A DNA stretch of 64,000 bases from Escherichia coli. GTDB taxonomy: Bacteria > Pseudomonadota > Gammaproteobacteria > Enterobacterales > Enterobacteriaceae. The translations under genes and the position numbers were made by a program. Of the stretch, positions 19,456-56,127 are shown one piece after another; positions within the stretch are counted from its first letter, which is position 1; each line of letters opens with the position of its first letter. The stretch lies in assembly GCF_024223415.1 (NCBI RefSeq), contig NZ_CP100503.1; one strand, given 5' to 3'. Below the pieces are notes generated by a model. The model did no database searches, was not told where the DNA came from, and was given only the letters and a program-made list of their open reading frames with translations.

Positions 19456-20649
19456 GTGACCTGGGACGATCACAAGAAGAATTTTGCTCGCCTGGCGCGA
19501 GATGGTGGTTACACCATCGCACAGTATGCCGCCGAGTTTAATCTTAACCCTAATACTGCACGTCGTTATCTCCGTGCCTTCAAAGAAGACACCAGGACAG
19601 CGGACAGCCGCAAGCCAAATAAGCCAGTCAGGAAGCCACTAAAAAGCATGATCATTGATCACTCTAATGATCAACATGCAGGTGATCACATTGCGGCTGA
19701 AATAGCGGAAAAACAAAGGGTTAATGCCGTTGTCAGTGCCGCAGTCGAGAACGCGAAGCGCCAGAATAAGCGCATAAATGATCGTTCTGATGATCATGAC
19801 GTGATCACCCGCGCCCACCGGACCTTACGTGATCGCCTGGAACGCGACACCCTGGATGATGATGGTGAACGCTTTGAATTCGAAGCTGGCGATTACCTGA
19901 TAGATAACGTTGAAGCGCGGAAGGCCGCTCGCGCTATGTTGCGTCGGTCCGGGGCTGATGTTCTGGAAACCACTCTTCTGGAAAAGTCTCTCTCTCATCT
20001 CCTTATGCTGGAGAACGCCAGGGATACGTGTATTCGCCTGGTGCAGGAAATGCGCGATCAGCAAAAAGACGATGATGAAGGGACTCCGCCTGAATATCGT
20101 ATCGCGAGCATGCTAAACAGCTGTTCCGCGCAGATAAGCAGCCTGATCAACACCATTTACAGCATCCGGAATAACTATCGAAAAGAAAGCCGGGAGGCGG
20201 AAAAGCACGCTTTATCTATGGGGCAAGCTGGCATTGTTAAGCTGGCATACGAACGAAAGCGTGAAAATAACTGGTCAGTGCTGGAAGCAGCTGAATTCAT
20301 CGAGGCGCATGGCGGAAAAGTGCCGCCCCTGATGCTGGAGCAAATCAAAGCCGATCTGCGTGCTCCTAAGACCAATACCGATGATGAGGAAAACCAAACA
20401 GCATCTGGCGCTCCATCACTTGAAGATCTGGATAAAATCGCGCGAGAACGGGCCGCCAGCCGCCGCGCTGATGCCGCATTGTGGATTGAGCATCGTAGAG
20501 AAGAAATTGCCGATATCGTCGATACAGGTGGTTATGGTGATGTCGATGCGGAAGGCATATCAAACGAAGCATGGCTTGAACAGGATCTGGACGAAGACGA
20601 GGAGGAAGACGAAGAAGTTACCCGCAAACTGTACGGGGATGATGATTAA
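19456..20649 (+). CDS. pacA: Pacase (terminase) subunit PacA (397 aa)
   Basis: GTG start; length matches P1 PacA; contains the pac hexamer cluster; acidic C-terminus. Confidence 0.8.
19649..19835 (+). other. pac packaging site: TGATCA/G hexamer repeats (4 left, 3-4 right) with GATC Dam sites
   Basis: Hexamers at 19649, 19656, 19668, 19683 and 19779, 19791, 19802, 19830 (positions from codon arithmetic); P1 pac architecture. Confidence 0.8.
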
Positions 20650-25424: not shown

Positions 25425-25661
25425 CTTAAGGGTTATTGAACATGATTAATTTACCTGTAAATCCATACAGTTCAATACCTTATCAGGTCAAATAGTGATC
25501 ACTTGATCATTTGATCAAGGTTGCGCTACGTAAAATCTGCGAAATGTTGGCAGTGTTTGTGCTCCAGATTTCGCGTAGCGCATATATCCCAAGATGGGAC
25601 TAAAAAGCTTTACCTAATCCCAGAATGGGACTAATATACTTGCCGGGATAAGGAATATGTA

Positions 25662-49534: not shown

Positions 49535-51262
49535 TTACTCAGAGTCACCGGCATCAATCGTGTCGCCGCTTATGAAGTTAAGCCCGCCTTTTTTGGCCAT
49601 TGTCAGCGTTACACGAGTGAAGTAATCAGCGCCGTTGCGTGGGTGCATATCGTTGATAGCCGAACCCCACAGCGTGGTACGGTTGACCAGCGCCGGAGTG
49701 GTCGGATGCTGGAACGGGATGGCCGGGACAGCATCACCAGTCACGAAGCCTGCTTTACCCGGATTTTCATCACGGACGTAGCACAGCACATCCATCGAGC
49801 TGAACTGAATGTTCTCTGTCGTTAAGTTCTTACAAATACCAGCAGGTACTTCGTACACTTTCACGTTACCGAACAGGGTACCGATGTAGTGAACATACGG
49901 AGTCTGGATATAGTCTTCGGCTGGCTGGAAGAAATCCTTCGGCAACTGTTTGAAGAAAGATGCTGCATCAGCACCAGCAAACATCCCCATCGCACCAGAA
50001 GATTTAACGCGCTCAATAATGTCGCGATATACAGTCTGGAATTTGCCACGAATGATGGTTGCCCATACATCAAAGGACTGGTTAACCGGCAGAGCGATGT
50101 CAAAGGTGTCGTTCGCAAGAGTACGCCAGATCATGATGCGAAGACGCAGCATATCCTGTTCATGAGACAGGTATTCCTTCAGGGTGCGGAACTGTAGGGA
50201 ACCCAGGTCCAGACCAAATTCACGCTGTGCTTCATACGCCGCCTGTACCGTGTGCTCAGCCGCGATAACGAACTGGCTTGGGAACAGGGTGTATTTCTTC
50301 ATTTCGTGGTTGATCAGCGGGATCAGCTCAGGAGCGGCTTCAATATTGATTTCCGTCTCAATTGCGATCTCAGTGCCTTTATCCGGCGCTTTGGAGAACG
50401 ACAGGGCAATCTGACCAATGTTGTAGTTCAGAGAGCAGGTAACAGTGATTTGCTCACCAGCAGCATTAGTAAACGAGTGAAGTAGGCTGCCGGAACCGTT
50501 ATCAACAACAGACTTAATACGGTTAACGTAGATATTAGTGCGACCTTTTCGGATTGGTACATTCTGGCCTTCGAAGTCTTCCATCTTGAAGGTTGCGGTT
50601 TTGCTGGTGCCATCGGAGCTTGCCACCAGCACATAGCGGCGGCGTAACTGGCTGTACACACCGACGGATTGCATGTCCAGAACATCACCAGCAGCATAAG
50701 AACCAAAAGAGGAACCTGCCACGTTAAAGACTTCATAGATGTCGGACTGGTCACGCGTAACCGGAATGAAGGTACACGCATCAGCGGTAGCTGCCCCCAA
50801 CTGAACAGGCAGGATCATCGCGAGGAATAAAGGCAGACGCATAACACCGTCAGAAACGCTCATCATCTCTGCTGCGACGGATTCCAGCATCGCTTTATTA
50901 GTGGCATCCATGCTATTGCGGGTAGACTCAATCAGGCAGTTTTCCAGCGTCTGGTGGCAGGAGGCCAGAATTTCCGGACGCGGCATAGATTTATGTGCTG
51001 CGGCGTAGTCAGCCAGTGCACTTGCCCACGCTGTAGCGATTTGAGCGGTGGCATTATCAGAGATACCCGCAAAAACCGGGTCTTTACGTGCAGCTTCAAG
51101 GATAGATGCGGCACGCGCGGCATCATCTTTAATGAATTGGTTATCAGTACCGAACTGCGCAGTGCTTGCCCAGCCAAGCACAGCTTTAGAGCGTTTTGCG
51201 ATATCTGCAATACGATTCTGGTATTCGCGTAAGTTACTCAATTTACTCTTCCTTAAACACAA
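49535..51262 (-). CDS. Putative major head protein (575 aa; P1 gene 23 position next to parS)
   Basis: Size and position adjacent to parS as in P1. Confidence 0.4.
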   Translation of the reverse strand: MCLRKSKLSNLREYQNRIADIAKRSKAVLGWASTAQFGTDNQFIKDDAARAASILEAARKDPVFAGISDNATAQIATAWASALADYAAAHKSMPRPEILASCHQTLENCLIESTRNSMDATNKAMLESVAAEMMSVSDGVMRLPLFLAMILPVQLGAATADACTFIPVTRDQSDIYEVFNVAGSSFGSYAAGDVLDMQSVGVYSQLRRRYVLVASSDGTSKTATFKMEDFEGQNVPIRKGRTNIYVNRIKSVVDNGSGSLLHSFTNAAGEQITVTCSLNYNIGQIALSFSKAPDKGTEIAIETEINIEAAPELIPLINHEMKKYTLFPSQFVIAAEHTVQAAYEAQREFGLDLGSLQFRTLKEYLSHEQDMLRLRIMIWRTLANDTFDIALPVNQSFDVWATIIRGKFQTVYRDIIERVKSSGAMGMFAGADAASFFKQLPKDFFQPAEDYIQTPYVHYIGTLFGNVKVYEVPAGICKNLTTENIQFSSMDVLCYVRDENPGKAGFVTGDAVPAIPFQHPTTPALVNRTTLWGSAINDMHPRNGADYFTRVTLTMAKKGGLNFISGDTIDAGDSE

Positions 51263-51379
51263 GGCACTTGTGTGAATCCCTTTTCGGAAGAGATTTTATT
51301 GAAAGTCACTTGTTGACTTTCTCGTGACAAGCAATTTTTTTATTTTTTTCGGGAGTAGGGGAGGAAGGTAAAATCCAAG

Positions 51380-51465
51380 GTGAAATCGTGGCGATTTCAC
51401 CTTGAAATTTTAGATGGATTTACTTTAAAAACAGTAGGTTAATAGTGAAATTTGAATGGCGAAAG
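51380..51465. other. parS centromere (ParB box A heptamers ATTTCAC/ATTTCAA and box B hexamers TCGCCA)
   Basis: GTGAAATCGTGGCGATTTCACCTTGAAATTT and TAGTGAAATTTGAATGGCGAAAG, with an AT-rich IHF-like region between; directly downstream of parB. Confidence 0.75.
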
Positions 51466-51466
51466 T

Positions 51467-52468
51467 TTAAGGCTTCGGCTTTTTATCGAGGCTCTTTCTA
51501 AGGATATGCCCAATCATCCTGTCGAGTTCTTCCTGTAGCTCTTTTGAAAGTCGATTAAACTCATAAGAAAATGCACGGCCTTTCACGCGCTTCCTTGCAA
51601 AGCGATCCTTGTCCTCAAATTTCCATAATTCAGTAACTACGGACTTATCTTTAGAACCTTTATCCGTGAGTAGTGAGGCTTCCTTTGTTATCAAGCGCAG
51701 GATTTTATTTTTAACTTCATCTTCGGCCATTTCTTCAATGGATAAGATGTCGTTTATTTCCGGGGATATGTTTTGAATAAGCTGATCAAACTCTAAATTC
51801 TTGTTCCCCATTTCGTCGCCAACAGCACAAAGCGTTTTGTAGTCCGAAAAGGTTAATTCCGACTGCACAGGGAAAAGGGCGACTAATTCTTCCGGAGCAC
51901 TCGCTGCCTGGAGAGCACGCGTGACCTTCGCCTGAGACAGCCCTTCTTTGGCTGCAATATCCTTCTGACTCATCCCATCATTTTTCATTCGCATCAAACG
52001 CAGACCTATTTCTCGAATGCTGTGCTGCAATGCTGTCTGAACGTCTTTCGCTAAATTTTGCGCTTCCTGAACGCTGATCTCCTGGTCCGTGACTAAAACC
52101 CGCAACCCTACGTTCTCTAAGATGGCAGAAGCTCGACGCCGGGAACCATCCAAAATTTCAATTTTCCCTGTAGCCTGTCTAACACCTATTGCAGGGTAAA
52201 ATTGCTGATGCTTAATAGTGCTTCGGATACTTTTTAATGATTTTGGCGTAAGAGATGCCTGGTCACGCCCGTTGTTATGCTGATCAACAAAGGTATCGCT
52301 TTCTACCTGGTTCGGAGGTATTACCTCTTCAATAAATGTGGCCTGGCGACCAGTTGATAACTTGAATACCTGCTCGACTCGATCGCCAGAGGCTGAAGAA
52401 CTATCAAATCCGCTTAATATTGAAGGATTAAGGGTTCGCCCAATTGTTGGTCTGTTTTTCTTTGACAT
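51467..52468 (-). CDS. parB: Partition protein ParB (333 aa)
   Basis: Length and parA-parB-parS order as in P1; HTH region. Confidence 0.85.
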   Translation of the reverse strand: MSKKNRPTIGRTLNPSILSGFDSSSASGDRVEQVFKLSTGRQATFIEEVIPPNQVESDTFVDQHNNGRDQASLTPKSLKSIRSTIKHQQFYPAIGVRQATGKIEILDGSRRRASAILENVGLRVLVTDQEISVQEAQNLAKDVQTALQHSIREIGLRLMRMKNDGMSQKDIAAKEGLSQAKVTRALQAASAPEELVALFPVQSELTFSDYKTLCAVGDEMGNKNLEFDQLIQNISPEINDILSIEEMAEDEVKNKILRLITKEASLLTDKGSKDKSVVTELWKFEDKDRFARKRVKGRAFSYEFNRLSKELQEELDRMIGHILRKSLDKKPKP

Positions 52469-52484
52469 GGGGGTTTCTTACTCC

Positions 52485-53681
52485 TCAGTTAGATCTGATA
52501 AATTCAATACGGTCAAAAACTGCTTTAGCAAAATCTTCCGCAGCAATTCGCGCGTTCTTCAATGCATCAGCACTACCAACATACGTTGCCGGGTTAGCTG
52601 AAATAACAGTGTCAAAAGACTCGCCGCAGCGTTCAAAACCGTCAAGGCGAGGGAGGACGACATCAAGCATATCCCCACCGAACACTTCTTTAGCCAGGCT
52701 ATGGCAATACTTATGGTCTGCCTTGTTACTCAACTTGGACATAAAACCAATGTTAGTCGCAAGCTGGCACTCGCAGCCTTCATCCGAAATGAGTTTCACC
52801 AACTCAGGAAGGCGAGCAACATATTTAAGCGATGAGTGGAAATCAACCGTTGCAGGCGGCAGAGGTGTAAACAGTATATTGGCCGAGGCCAAAGCATTTT
52901 TCAGGAAGGCGTCAAGGTGAGGACCACTATCAACGAGGATAAAGTCATAATCGCTCTTCAGCTTATCAATCACATTTTCTTTCAGGACTGCATGGATGTT
53001 CTGACCCGGTAGATGCTCATTGCACAGCTCTCTCCAATCGGATGCAATAAAGGCATCGTCAATCGACGCAGGCATAACGTCAACCCCAGGTACAACAGAA
53101 GGAACAATAAACTCCTCTAACAGCTCTTCACGGCTTACATTCTGCAACATAGCCTGTGCAGATGTTGCGTTTACGATACCAATAGAGTGTTTATGGCTTA
53201 AAAACATCGTTGCTGAAGATTGCGGATCAAGGTCAATAACCAGAATCCTTAAATCTTCCATCAGAAGATGAGGGTGAGCACGCATTGCATGCGCCAGAGA
53301 AACCGTCGATACAGTTTTTGACACACCGCCTTTAAGATTGGAGATGAAAATCACATACGCTTCGCTGTAGCGATCCCGGTATTTTGGCACTCCGCGATGT
53401 TCATATATGTCAATGATGTTCTGAATTGACATCGCATATTTCATTGAAGAGCCAGCAGGGCGTTTATCGAAAACATAACCCTTTTCTTCCATTTCACTTA
53501 CGGCATAGTCAACGTTCGCTCGAGTCAGTAGAGGCAATTTTGCCAGTGCCGCTTTCGCATAGACTTGGTAAAACTCGTTCGCGTGTAGCTCATCCTTTTG
53601 CAACTGTACTTGTTCAGTCAGAACATTGAGCATTCTGTTTGCTCTTTGAGCAACCTTGTGAAGCTGGCTGGAATCACTCAT
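52485..53681 (-). CDS. parA: Partition ATPase ParA (398 aa, type Ia with N-terminal DNA-binding extension)
   Basis: Deviant Walker A KGGVSKT; length matches P1 ParA. Confidence 0.85.
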   Translation of the reverse strand: MSDSSQLHKVAQRANRMLNVLTEQVQLQKDELHANEFYQVYAKAALAKLPLLTRANVDYAVSEMEEKGYVFDKRPAGSSMKYAMSIQNIIDIYEHRGVPKYRDRYSEAYVIFISNLKGGVSKTVSTVSLAHAMRAHPHLLMEDLRILVIDLDPQSSATMFLSHKHSIGIVNATSAQAMLQNVSREELLEEFIVPSVVPGVDVMPASIDDAFIASDWRELCNEHLPGQNIHAVLKENVIDKLKSDYDFILVDSGPHLDAFLKNALASANILFTPLPPATVDFHSSLKYVARLPELVKLISDEGCECQLATNIGFMSKLSNKADHKYCHSLAKEVFGGDMLDVVLPRLDGFERCGESFDTVISANPATYVGSADALKNARIAAEDFAKAVFDRIEFIRSN

Positions 53682-53727
53682 CGAAAGTCATCCTTTATGC
53701 TGTATTTTTGAATTTACTTAAAAATGC

Positions 53728-53750
53728 TGCATAAAATAATAATGTATGCA
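53728..53750. promoter_or_regulatory. par operon operator palindrome TGCATAAAATAATAATGTATGCA
   Basis: Inverted repeat about 45 bp upstream of parA start. Confidence 0.5.
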
Positions 53751-53821
53751 CAGATGCTTGTACATAGCATTCTCTGCATGTTTGGTTCATTTTGCACGAT
53801 TGAGAGTTACAAGGAGGACAC

Positions 53822-53842
53822 AAAAAAGCCCCGTTCAGGGGC
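53822..53842 (-). terminator. Rho-independent terminator candidate (GCCCC-loop-GGGGC, T-run on minus strand)
   Basis: Directly downstream of 53850..54659 gene. Confidence 0.55.
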
Positions 53843-53849
53843 ATCAGTG

Positions 53850-54659
53850 TTATTTGCTAAGAGCAGCGAATAATCGTTCGAAATCGATAGTATCTATAGC
53901 ACGCGTAAGCGCCGGAAGTTCAGTCTCAAAGTACCCGTGTCGATCGTAAAAGAAGGGACCGAAGAGCGAGGCATGTTGGATTCTACTTCGCCCCAGCCCG
54001 GACACACAGTTAAGCCCATTACCGGCTAAAAGGCTAAAAAACTTCTCTGGATTATCGTGGTAAAGCTGGGAATCAATGGTGGCGGTTAACTCTTCCATAG
54101 GGAAGCACACCCGCCCTGTCTCCCAGGGATATTTAGTCCGAAGCATAAACACTGCTTTCAGCAATTCACATTGAGCGCGGATCGCGTCCGGTTCATAGCC
54201 AGATATGGAGACATAAGCCACGTCCCTCATTCCTGCGTCATCTTTGAAAGTCACGATAGAAGTAACATCCAACTCTTTTTCGAAAGAGCGAGCAGCATCT
54301 ACTGGACGCTGAAGTAAATCATTCGACTTAATGCGCTCGAGAATCCCTCCCCACATATCATTTAGATATTCGATATGAGCCAAAACCTTATCAAGACACT
54401 CTCGTGTAAACCATTCAGTATGCCCGCCACCGGCGCTTTTCTCCCACGGCGCATTCCAGGGGAAAAAGGTTGCGTGTAAAGCCCGCTCAAGATTAACTAT
54501 TGCCAAACGCGTACCACGATAGACCCGTGAAAGCGCAAAATCGGGACTCACTTGTAGCCCTTTAAACCGTGCCAATGGACCACATGAAATGCCGATTTTA
54601 AAAGTATCTCCATTCTCCGGCACCAGAACGTAGAGGTAGTGTTGTTTCTCTTCTTGCAT
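53850..54659 (-). CDS. Hypothetical protein (269 aa) with GIY-YIG-like N-terminal motif
   Basis: N-terminus HYLYVLVPENGDTFKIGIS...R resembles GIY-(10 aa)-YIG; own terminator; sits between parA promoter and repA iterons. Confidence 0.4.
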   Translation of the reverse strand: MQEEKQHYLYVLVPENGDTFKIGISCGPLARFKGLQVSPDFALSRVYRGTRLAIVNLERALHATFFPWNAPWEKSAGGGHTEWFTRECLDKVLAHIEYLNDMWGGILERIKSNDLLQRPVDAARSFEKELDVTSIVTFKDDAGMRDVAYVSISGYEPDAIRAQCELLKAVFMLRTKYPWETGRVCFPMEELTATIDSQLYHDNPEKFFSLLAGNGLNCVSGLGRSRIQHASLFGPFFYDRHGYFETELPALTRAIDTIDFERLFAALSK

Positions 54660-54693
54660 ATCAATACCACTGCTTGATGAGAACCGCGCAAAT

Positions 54694-54950
54694 GTTGACT
54701 ATGCGCGAAAGTTAATGTGAATAGTTGACTATGCGCGATGTGACTACAGTAAAAAGTTGACTGTAGTCGATTTAACTCCACCAAAGATCGACTATGTAAG
54801 ATATTGTCGGGAGAAACGTTGACTATACGCGATGAAATGACCCTAAAAGCCATCTCAATAGCGACTTGCAGAATATTGACGCCAGCAAAAATCCACCAGC
54901 GTCAACGAATGTCGCCTATAGTCAACTTCTCGCTATCGCATATAGTCAAT
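54694..54950. repeat. Iteron cluster downstream of repA (incA-like): GTTGACTATGCGCGA-type repeats in both orientations
   Basis: At least 5 direct copies (54694, 54724, 54756, 54787, 54818) and 2 inverted (54912, 54936). Confidence 0.7.
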
Positions 54951-54951
54951 A

Positions 54952-55893
54952 TTATGGATTACGCTTATGGATCTGGAAGCCGATTTTCCTGCCGTTTTTT
55001 ATCTCTGAAAATTTAAGATATTCAATAGCTTCCAAATCTTTCATGGCTTTTCTGATAACGCTATTTTGCACGCTAACGGATGATTTGAGATTAAGCCTTG
55101 CTCTAAGGCGCTCAATGCTGACAGGTGCCGGGTTGGCGGGTAGAGCCTCAAAGAATGTATACAGTACCTTGGCCGTCTCTTTGCGCCCGAGCTTATCCAG
55201 CATCTTCAGCTTCAGGATTCGCTTATAGTCAACATAGTAAAGTTCAGATAGCTGTTTCTGCGGCTGGATCTCGATAACATCAAGCTCGGTATTCAGGCTG
55301 CTATATGCCAACAAGTTGACGTTAATGTTATTGAGATGACCTTTTGCCGCCGGGAAGCGGAATTTGACAACTGTCTGCTGAATGCGTGTCAGAGAGTCAT
55401 CAATACTTTTACGGAACGCCTTTGAAAGGCGCTTACGTGGATAGCCGCATCGATCGGCAAACTCGGAGAATGGCAGGGTGATTATGCCGTCATCATCAGG
55501 TGCGTAGTCAAACAACGCGGAGGTTATGCCCACCCACACCTTAAAATCAGTATCCATATCCAGGCGTGGACCATGAATTTCAATTCCCTCATAGCCTTCC
55601 TGCTCAACAATTTTGAGGCTTGATAGTTCTTCGGTTGCGTTCGTTGTGTTTGTAGTAACTGACGATCCGCGACGTAGTGCCACATTGGTAGATTTTAAGG
55701 TTGGCACAAACACACCTAAGCGCAACAAAGCGATGGGTTGTATAGTGCTATTGTTATTGGGTTTCAGGCTGTGGATTTCTCCTGTATTTCCTGCAACTTC
55801 TTCAACGCTAAGGAAGCCTTTATTTTCTTCCGGCATCGTGGTTTCTCCATATGTGGCGCGGCCTGGCGTCATCTGGATTGCAGTTATCAACAA
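54952..55893 (-). CDS. repA: Iteron-binding plasmid replication initiator RepA (313 aa; likely shorter true start)
   Basis: Flanked by iteron arrays on both sides; motifs QPIALLRLGVFVP and GPRLDMDTDFKVW resemble P1 RepA as I recall. Confidence 0.75.
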   Translation of the reverse strand: MLITAIQMTPGRATYGETTMPEENKGFLSVEEVAGNTGEIHSLKPNNNSTIQPIALLRLGVFVPTLKSTNVALRRGSSVTTNTTNATEELSSLKIVEQEGYEGIEIHGPRLDMDTDFKVWVGITSALFDYAPDDDGIITLPFSEFADRCGYPRKRLSKAFRKSIDDSLTRIQQTVVKFRFPAAKGHLNNINVNLLAYSSLNTELDVIEIQPQKQLSELYYVDYKRILKLKMLDKLGRKETAKVLYTFFEALPANPAPVSIERLRARLNLKSSVSVQNSVIRKAMKDLEAIEYLKFSEIKNGRKIGFQIHKRNP

Positions 55894-55916
55894 CTGTGAA
55901 TAGTCAGGCTCTAAAA

Positions 55917-56127
55917 TCGCGTACAGTCAATGTTTCTGTCGCGTATAGTCAACAATAAATCGCGTGCAGTCAACAATAAATCGTGCACAGTCAACATAAA
56001 ATCGCGTATAGTCAATGTTAATCCCATTTCAGGCCAGAAATGGCGCGGCTTACAGCGATCCGGGATCTTCTTTGGATCTTCCTGGGTTCTCTTTAGGATC
56101 TGTTTATTGGATCTATGCTGTGGATAA
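55917..56127. other. Plasmid origin (oriR-like): five 14-bp iterons at 21-22 bp spacing, five GATC sites and a consensus DnaA box
   Basis: Iterons TCGCGTAYAGTCAA at 55917, 55939, 55960, 55981, 56002; GATC at 56057, 56064, 56075, 56097, 56110; TGTGGATAA at 56119. Confidence 0.75.

Follow-up and report, generated by a model that had tools for sequence, protein, structure and literature searches.

Layout of the replicon region

The window, a 64,000-nucleotide stretch of Escherichia coli contig NZ_CP100503.1, contains a repA gene flanked on both sides by arrays of short repeats (iterons). Beyond the origin-side array lie a cluster of GATC sites and a DnaA box; beyond the other array lie a gene for a T5orf172-domain protein and a P1-type partition module (Table 1). 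The repA gene is on the minus strand, so that "upstream" in the initial annotation of this region means the high-coordinate side.

Table 1. Features of the replicon and its surroundings (window coordinates)
Feature	Position	Strand	Remarks
parS, parB, parA, Ppar	51168-53783		99.1% identical to canonical P1
P1-type partition module	51380-53783	-	Outside the swapped cassette; parB 51467-52468, parA 52485-53681, with parS and Ppar
Cassette differing from canonical P1	53784 to ~56135	.	Flanks: left 99.1% P1, right ~98% P1
T5orf172 gene, control array, repA, origin iterons	53784-56032		No P1 homology except a 59-bp stretch
T5orf172 gene	53850-54659	-	269-aa protein with T5orf172/GIY-YIG-like domain; constant passenger in the p0111 cassette; absent from canonical P1
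Copy-control array (putative incA equivalent)	54695-54949	.	Directly after the repA stop
repA	54952-55836	-	294 aa; iteron-binding initiator (by homology); ATG start, GGAG eight bases upstream
Candidate iteron within the repA coding sequence	55219-55232	+	TCGCTTATAGTCAA; encodes VDYKRI
Two DnaA-box-like sites	55884-55903		Between iterons and repA; one mismatch each; TTATCAACA plus strand, CTATTCACA minus strand
Five origin iterons (incC equivalent)	55917-56015	+	14-bp cores; 24.7-30.1 bits (weight matrix)
Candidate repA promoter	55993-56021	-	TTAACA-17-TATGTT, enclosing the outermost iteron; consensus-level match only
GATC/DnaA stretch	56033 to ~56135		76% identical to P1
GATC (Dam) cluster	56057-56113	.	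AGATCC(A/C)-type heptamers; host-factor and opening half of the origin
Consensus DnaA box	56119-56127	-	TGTGGATAA (TTATCCACA read on the minus strand)
upfA and onward	from 56136		~98% identical to P1

The initial annotation described five direct iterons 21-22 bp apart on the origin side of repA, accompanied by five GATC sites and a consensus DnaA box, and we recovered all of these. The iterons, TCGCGTATAGTCAA and variants of it, all in direct orientation, start at 55917, 55939, 55960, 55981, and 56002, which gives start-to-start distances of 22/21/21/21 bp. Three of the five contain an exact TCGCGTAYAGTCAA, the other two carry the variants TCGCGTGCAGTCAA and TCGTGCACAGTCAA, and in the sense of repA the repeats read TTGACTRYRYRCGA. 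The GATC sites (56057, 56064, 56075, 56097, and 56110) fall within 57 bp. As the window holds 246 GATC sites in 64 kb, a mean of about one per 260 bp, this is a real cluster. The consensus DnaA box is one of three perfect TTATNCACA matches in the whole window and adjoins a degenerate second box, TTATTCAAC, at 56128-56136; P1 has two tandem boxes there. At the position aligned with the two DnaA-box-like sites close to repA, a sister replicon (L003, see below) has a perfect DnaA box. A promoter and terminator scan gave no signal above chance, and for this reason we treat TTAACA-17-TATGTT as a candidate promoter.

On the other side of repA, at least seven copies in both orientations had been proposed, and the array accommodates this count. 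We found four strong inverted copies (54695, 54725, 54757, and 54819), a decayed inverted copy at 54787 that is in register with their 30-32 bp spacing, and two direct copies (54912 and 54936). A divergent element, AAATCCRCCAGCGTCAAYG (54889-54907; core 54894-54907), is kept both in the window and in L003 and may be a third, divergent direct copy. Six of the eight copies are thus strong, with one decayed and one divergent. Neither a DnaA box nor a GATC cluster was found in this array.

The repeats stand out clearly from background. A degenerate iteron pattern matched the window 13 times, where 1.7 matches were expected; in 100 shuffles this count was never attained. A position weight matrix built from ten clear iteron copies returned 11 sites of at least 23 bits, every one inside 54695-56015, whereas the shuffled maximum was 20.7 bits. 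The site within repA scores 17.8 bits, inside the noise range, and is thus a candidate iteron only; L003 and L005 both carry it unchanged at this codon.

The repA coding sequence is 885 bp long, the same length as in the RefSeq annotation of pO111_2. In BLASTP, its product was 41% identical to P1 RepA over 291 aa, a full-length match (E 2e-71), and the family alignment has 50 invariant columns. Pfam recognized Rep3_C (27.3 bits; cut-off 21.1), with Rep3_N at 22.0 bits falling just under its cut-off of 22.4; NCBIfam had no family for RepA and none for the T5orf172 protein. A sequence search of the PDB with RepA returned only noise, and a fold search gave initiator matches: the top Foldseek hits of the AlphaFold model (pLDDT 75.8) were RctB domains 2-3, RepE54, pi, and pPS10 RepA WH1, at E values of 4e-7 to 3e-3. 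RepA is accordingly modeled as an initiator with the two-winged-helix (WH1-WH2) fold.

Replicon type and extent of the cassette

The replicon region was 99.5% identical over 1,511 bp to NC_013370 (pO111_2), which we take to correspond to AP010962. The p0111 reference of PlasmidFinder is the same plasmid, pO111_2 of E. coli O111:H- 11128. Among phages, JL22 and SJ46 gave identities of 99.0-99.1%, with 97.7-98.0% for RCS47 and phi456, and at least 377 PLSDB plasmids matched the replicon at a query cover of 80% or more. Among 5,426 complete E. coli genomes, 414 (~8%) carry the p0111 replicon, always on one record per genome. Next to the replicon, its p0111 relatives also have the GIY-YIG/T5orf172 gene and a P1-type par module, as in the window. 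Judged from these alignments, the replicon is an ordinary representative of the already catalogued p0111 type and not a new element.

JL22 repA has been typed as p0111, and IncY and p0111 have been described as the two replicon types of P1-like phage-plasmids (PMC9603915). In Salmonella, 132 p0111 and 94 IncY elements were reported, with a compatibility called "theoretical" and 17 type switches inferred on a tree (PMC11165635). For SJ46, an identity of 42% between its RepA and P1 RepA had already been noted; PCR replicon typing could not assign SJ46 to a type, and electroporation yielded transformants that carried its plasmid (PMC5241659). As p0111 is a known type, published work already takes it to have its own replication specificity (PMC9603915, PMC11165635). 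A literature search retrieved no published account of p0111 iterons or origin anatomy, and no experiment on p0111 iterons, promoter, or incompatibility. The map of the iterons and the origin is the only new detail that we add to this known system.

To delimit the part of the element that differs from P1, we used AF234172 and K02380 as canonical P1 references. The alignment profile of the window against P1 sets the cassette at 53784 to ~56135. A nucleotide alignment of repA to the IncY reference (K02380/AF234172) yielded nothing except a 59-bp stretch at 76%. What has been swapped relative to P1 comprises RepA, all iterons, and one endonuclease-like gene, and what has been kept comprises par, the immunity genes, and the DnaA/Dam half of the origin. 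With parS, the incB determinant of P1, being P1's own, only the specificity of replication control has changed. By alignment, it is the presumed replication-control determinants (the incA and incC equivalents) alone that are distinct from P1, and the partition determinant (incB) is not. We also considered par as a part of the swap and rejected this on its 99.1% identity to canonical P1; the window par is only 65% identical at the nucleotide level to that of OP279344 ("P1 del res del mod", L001), which carries a non-canonical par.

The sister replicon L003 is found outside a P1 context, on an E. coli contig of 91 kb, and its RepA and DNA are 85% and 77% identical to those of the window, respectively. 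Between the two, the iteron cores were 84-85% conserved and the spacers 40-56%; in the downstream array alone, the values were 85% for the cores and 40% for the spacers. Where the window copy at 54787 has decayed, L003 has an intact iteron. The comparison of cores with spacers shows that the iterons have been under purifying selection. When copies and lineages are compared, TTGACT and CGA(T) are the parts that stay constant, with five variable bases between them. These may be two half-sites at a distance of about one helical turn, which would suit an initiator with two winged-helix domains. The reading of L003 as a D6-type phage-plasmid was rejected, as we found no D6 match and its 77% hits were to p0111 phages only.

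Comparison with P1 and related replicons

The initial annotation likened the layout to oriR/incC-repA-incA of P1, and the same measurements made on P1 give a matching pattern down to the spacing. Both replicons have five origin-side iterons (incC in P1) at 22/21/21/21 bp, together with five Dam sites and DnaA boxes. An iteron forms the spacer of P1 PrepA, and the candidate promoter of p0111 likewise encloses an iteron. P1 incA consists of nine iterons adjoining the repA stop, the three proximal ones in the incC orientation and the six distal ones inverted, at ~31 bp; the p0111 control array also begins right at the repA stop, and there too the copies nearer to repA are direct and those farther away are inverted, at ~31 bp. 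The order and orientation of all parts are thus common to P1 and p0111, and their RepA proteins are homologous and of the same length class. The two replicons differ in several details, however. The p0111 control array has ~8 copies (five inverted and three direct, two of them weak) rather than nine (six and three), and there is one perfect distal DnaA box in p0111 instead of two. In addition, p0111 has the candidate iteron inside repA and the extra T5orf172 gene between the array and Ppar.

The main difference lies in the iterons themselves, which are unrelated in sequence (TTGACTATACGCGA in p0111 versus GATGTGTGCTGGAGGGAAA in P1). No copy of the P1 iteron was found in the replicon with three mismatches allowed, and the sole match in the window, at 15073, has three mismatches; conversely, the p0111 weight matrix found no site in the P1 rep region. 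The initial annotation had taken the iteron to be unlike that of P1, and this holds in both directions, with the P1 19-mer absent from the replicon and the p0111-type iteron absent from the P1 region. A comparison of RepA and the iterons with P1, which had been suggested with identical iterons as the outcome that would overturn the idea, gave 41% identity for RepA and no relationship between the iterons. The possibility that this is after all a standard P1/P7 (IncY) replicon, with the P1 iteron mistaken in the annotation, has next to no probability left. Its gene order, iteron phasing, GATC cluster, and DnaA box are as in P1, and the flanking upfA and parA are 98-99% P1; however, GATGTGTGCTGGAGGGAAA is missing from the replicon, RepA is only 41% identical, and between 53784 and 56032 nothing aligns with canonical P1 at the nucleotide level bar the one 59-bp stretch. 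These alignments already refute a standard IncY replicon.

We then compared RepA with other members of its family. Its identity was 47% to an IncFIB RepA of E. coli, 48% to one of Klebsiella, and 53-54% to Providencia/Proteus proteins, against 41% to P1 RepA; P1 RepA and an IncFIB protein were 47% identical to each other. These values, 41-54% across P1, IncFIB, and Providencia/Proteus, place p0111 and P1 on different branches of the P1/RepFIB family, and each of the two has an iteron of its own. No plasmid RepA in PLSDB had an identity between 60% and 80% to p0111 RepA, and this gap marks the p0111 proteins as a separate tight cluster.

RepFIB (IncFIB) shares the initiator family with p0111 (47% identity) and has a DnaA box followed by a GATC-heptamer series, with iterons on both sides of repA. 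It is highly improbable, however, that an F-like or HI plasmid was the source of the replicon, which would then be of the IncFIB/RepFIB (or IncHI1B) type and belong to the incompatibility group of that type. RepA is slightly nearer to IncFIB-type proteins (44-49%) than to P1 RepA (41%), its GenBank label is "RepFIB replication protein A", and MOB-suite types pO111_2 as IncHI1B. Against this, an identity of 47% is far outside any IncFIB allele, and the 60-80% gap in PLSDB leaves no intermediates. The IncFIB iterons (ATAAGCTGTAGTCAGTAA type) also differ from those of p0111 in sequence, arrangement, and orientation relative to repA, which is opposite. IncFIB RepA has a ~45-aa C-terminal extension that p0111 RepA does not have, and the IncFIB replicon does not sit in a P1 phage backbone, whereas the p0111 replicon does. 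A TAGTCA hexamer common to the p0111 and RepFIB iterons was dismissed as too short and in opposite orientation.

Outside the p0111 cluster, the nearest RepA (53-54%) is that of a Providencia/Proteus megaplasmid replicon (RepA P0008). Its iterons have the outer frame GTTGA...CGAT, as in p0111, and one copy lies inside the rep gene. They differ from the p0111 iterons in the central bases (GTTGATGCTAGTCGAT), the array downstream of rep repeats a 43-bp unit 11 times in tandem, and the intragenic iteron has another position and another orientation than the p0111 candidate.

The assignment of the downstream array to copy control (an incA equivalent) is likewise favored over three other readings, all of which we consider very unlikely: that the array serves as a second origin, that it binds the neighboring T5orf172 protein, or that it is a relic without function. 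The decay of copy 54787 and the divergence of copy 54894 speak for these readings. However, the array copies share their core with the origin iterons and begin at the repA stop codon, their split into proximal direct and distal inverted copies with ~31-bp spacing is exactly that of P1 incA, and they are conserved against diverged spacers. A second origin would moreover have to operate in an array without a DnaA box or GATC cluster.

On the origin side, the stretch with the GATC sites and the DnaA box aligns with P1 oriR, and the GATC cluster is 76% identical to P1 and 89% to L003. The IncFIB origin also has a series of GATC-heptamer motifs. The DnaA box and heptamer series are recognizably alike in P1, p0111, L003, and IncFIB, while the iteron/RepA half has been swapped. 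In sequence terms, the origin is composed of a conserved, presumptive host-factor half and a variable half that appears to be specific to the initiator.

Taken together, the region is very probably a functional p0111-type, iteron-controlled replicon of the P1/RepFIB family, by which a P1-like phage-plasmid is maintained as a low-copy plasmid prophage. How P1 controls its replication has been established by Chattoraj, Abeles, and Austin. By analogy, RepA monomers would bind the five phased origin iterons and host DnaA the flanking boxes, and the Dam-methylated, GATC-containing/AT-rich stretch would open. Iteron-bound RepA would repress its own promoter, the best candidate for which is TTAACA-17-TATGTT. 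The downstream array of ~8 iterons would keep the copy number down in two ways, through titration of RepA and through "handcuffing", in which RepA pairs the array with the origin. We infer RepA-iteron binding, autoregulation, handcuffing, and the dependence on DnaA and Dam from this likeness to P1; the anatomy of the sequence, the homology and fold of RepA, the selection on the iterons, and the identity and prevalence of the replicon are shown directly by the analyses above.

Compatibility with IncY elements

Because RepA and the iterons both differ completely from those of P1, replication control of p0111 should be orthogonal to that of IncY; we consider this probable, in line with the distinct incompatibility specificity suggested in the initial annotation. 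On the other hand, with parS/parB/parA at 99.1% identity to P1, partition-type incompatibility with P1 should remain, and the element as a whole is likely not freely compatible with P1.

We followed the co-residence of the two replicons in the 5,426 complete E. coli genomes, 361 of which carry an IncY rep region. A concatenated p0111 + IncY query hit a union of 773 genomes and 776 records; the identity bands summed exactly, indicating that no hits were lost from the union count. Both replicons were present in only two genomes, on separate records and never on the same record (0 records with both), compared to ~27.5 genomes expected if they were independent, with population structure uncontrolled in this expectation. 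Given two against ~27.5 co-occurrences, the genomes do not show free compatibility; nor do they show replication incompatibility, because two genomes hold both replicons. What they do show is a large degree of mutual exclusion between p0111 and IncY elements. Any one of shared P1 immunity, a shared par system, and population structure could account for the shortfall, and the first two are obvious candidates.

ESBL, mcr, and toxin genes are found on P1-like phage-plasmids, which surveillance types by replicon, as IncY or p0111. The map of the swapped parts explains why the two are treated as separate replicon types. A different replicon type is not, however, equivalent to free coexistence, as the two are almost never found together in complete E. 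coli genomes. The iteron map may help in building mini-replicons and in incompatibility tests, as a detail of a known system and not as a new one.

The T5orf172 gene was found in 411 complete E. coli genomes compared to 414 for the p0111 replicon, which indicates that it is strictly linked to the replicon. As far as these counts go, we rejected the gene as an independently mobile insertion. PADLOC gave no defense-system match for it. An unlikely but conceivable reading has two parts. The p0111 cassette may have control sites which P1 lacks, namely the RepA site in the repA frame, unchanged in L003 at a DNA identity of only 77%, and the conserved divergent element of the downstream array. In addition, the linked T5orf172 gene, which resembles an endonuclease gene, may help the p0111 cassette to replace the IncY cassette by recombination. 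Replacement of the cassette when P1-like elements meet would fit both the 17 switches in Salmonella (PMC11165635) and the rarity of co-residence. The T5orf172 reading frame is intact in the window and is represented by two ORFs in pO111_2.

Iteron-like elements within and beside repA

Within the repA reading frame of the p0111 replicon, we observed an iteron-like TCGCTTATAGTCAA on the plus strand (55219-55232), which codes for VDYKRI. Relatives with RepA identities of 85% and 90% carried the identical element at the same codon position. Because its matrix score of 17.8 bits lies within noise, we regard this intragenic site only as a candidate iteron. A Providencia homologue likewise carries one intragenic iteron, but at another position and in the other orientation.

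Downstream of repA, AAATCCACCAGCGTCAACG (54889-54907) was kept in the sister replicon of 77% identity described below, while ~50 bp alongside it was scrambled. This element forms a 7-bp inverted repeat with TTGACGC at 54876; it may be a third direct iteron that has diverged, or may instead be the site of a different factor.

Related replicons and their typing

The sister replicon, which represents a lineage sister to p0111, lies on a 91,230 bp E. coli contig (GCA_013513435.1, DABKFZ010000018.1) and has a RepA of 85% identity and iterons of sequence TTGACTATGTGCGA. The genes neighbouring this sister replicon were not P1-like and gave no Pfam matches; its identification as phage D6 was considered and rejected. 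In the closest outgroup replicon, from a Providencia/Proteus megaplasmid (L006, 3831-4500), a 43-bp unit that includes an iteron-like GTTGAAGCAAGACGAT is repeated 11 times in tandem downstream of rep; the control arrays of P1 and p0111 are much smaller. PLSDB/MOB-suite types the replicon of the P1-like plasmid pO111_2 (NC_013370.1) as 'IncHI1B', a label apparently taken in error from its nearest relative in the RepFIB family.

The T5orf172 gene and the par operon

Between Ppar and the control array lies a gene for a T5orf172 / GIY-YIG-like protein, the N-terminus of which resembles phage endonucleases. This gene and the p0111 replicon showed strict linkage (411 versus 414 genomes). Canonical P1 lacks the gene, and in pO111_2 it is broken into two ORFs.

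The window par was 99.1% identical to the P1 par of AF234172/K02380, and the par regions of phages SJ46 and RCS47 were 99% identical to the window par. The SJ46 paper describes ParA and ParB of SJ46 and RCS47 as those of P7, distant from those of P1 (PMC5241659). We also compared window 51467-53681 with the par operon of OP279344.1 (2398-4565), a GenBank record titled 'P1 isolate del res del mod'; the DNA of this operon was only ~65% identical to canonical P1 par.

An intein and an apparent interruption in dmt

The 1,020-bp insertion in the window dmt encodes a 340-aa intein, in which Hint_2, LAGLIDADG_3 and Intein_splicing domains were detected (Pfam), and which canonical P1 dmt lacks. It is sited in the C5-methylase domain, within the catalytic PCQ motif (GGTP/CFTAG...VVHN/CQAFS). 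Homology to P1 Dmt extends up to residue 556 only, the ORF ends at 62333, and an IS200/IS605-type pair follows 3' of the gene (~62300-64000); an insertion sequence thus seems to interrupt the Dam domain of dmt.

Coordinates of accessory genes in the window
Feature	Position	Strand	Remark
T5orf172 / GIY-YIG-like protein, 269 aa	53850-54659	minus	phrog_2876
dmt methyltransferase gene	59631-62333		insertion 59865-60884
TnpA-like ORF, 178 aa	62349-62885	minus	IS200/IS605-type pair
TnpB/OrfB-like ORF, 410 aa	62764-63996	plus	IS200/IS605-type pair

Further dense GATC clusters were seen at 25497-25513 and at 19650-19831; the latter, with 8 sites in ~180 bp, we presume to be the P1 pac site.
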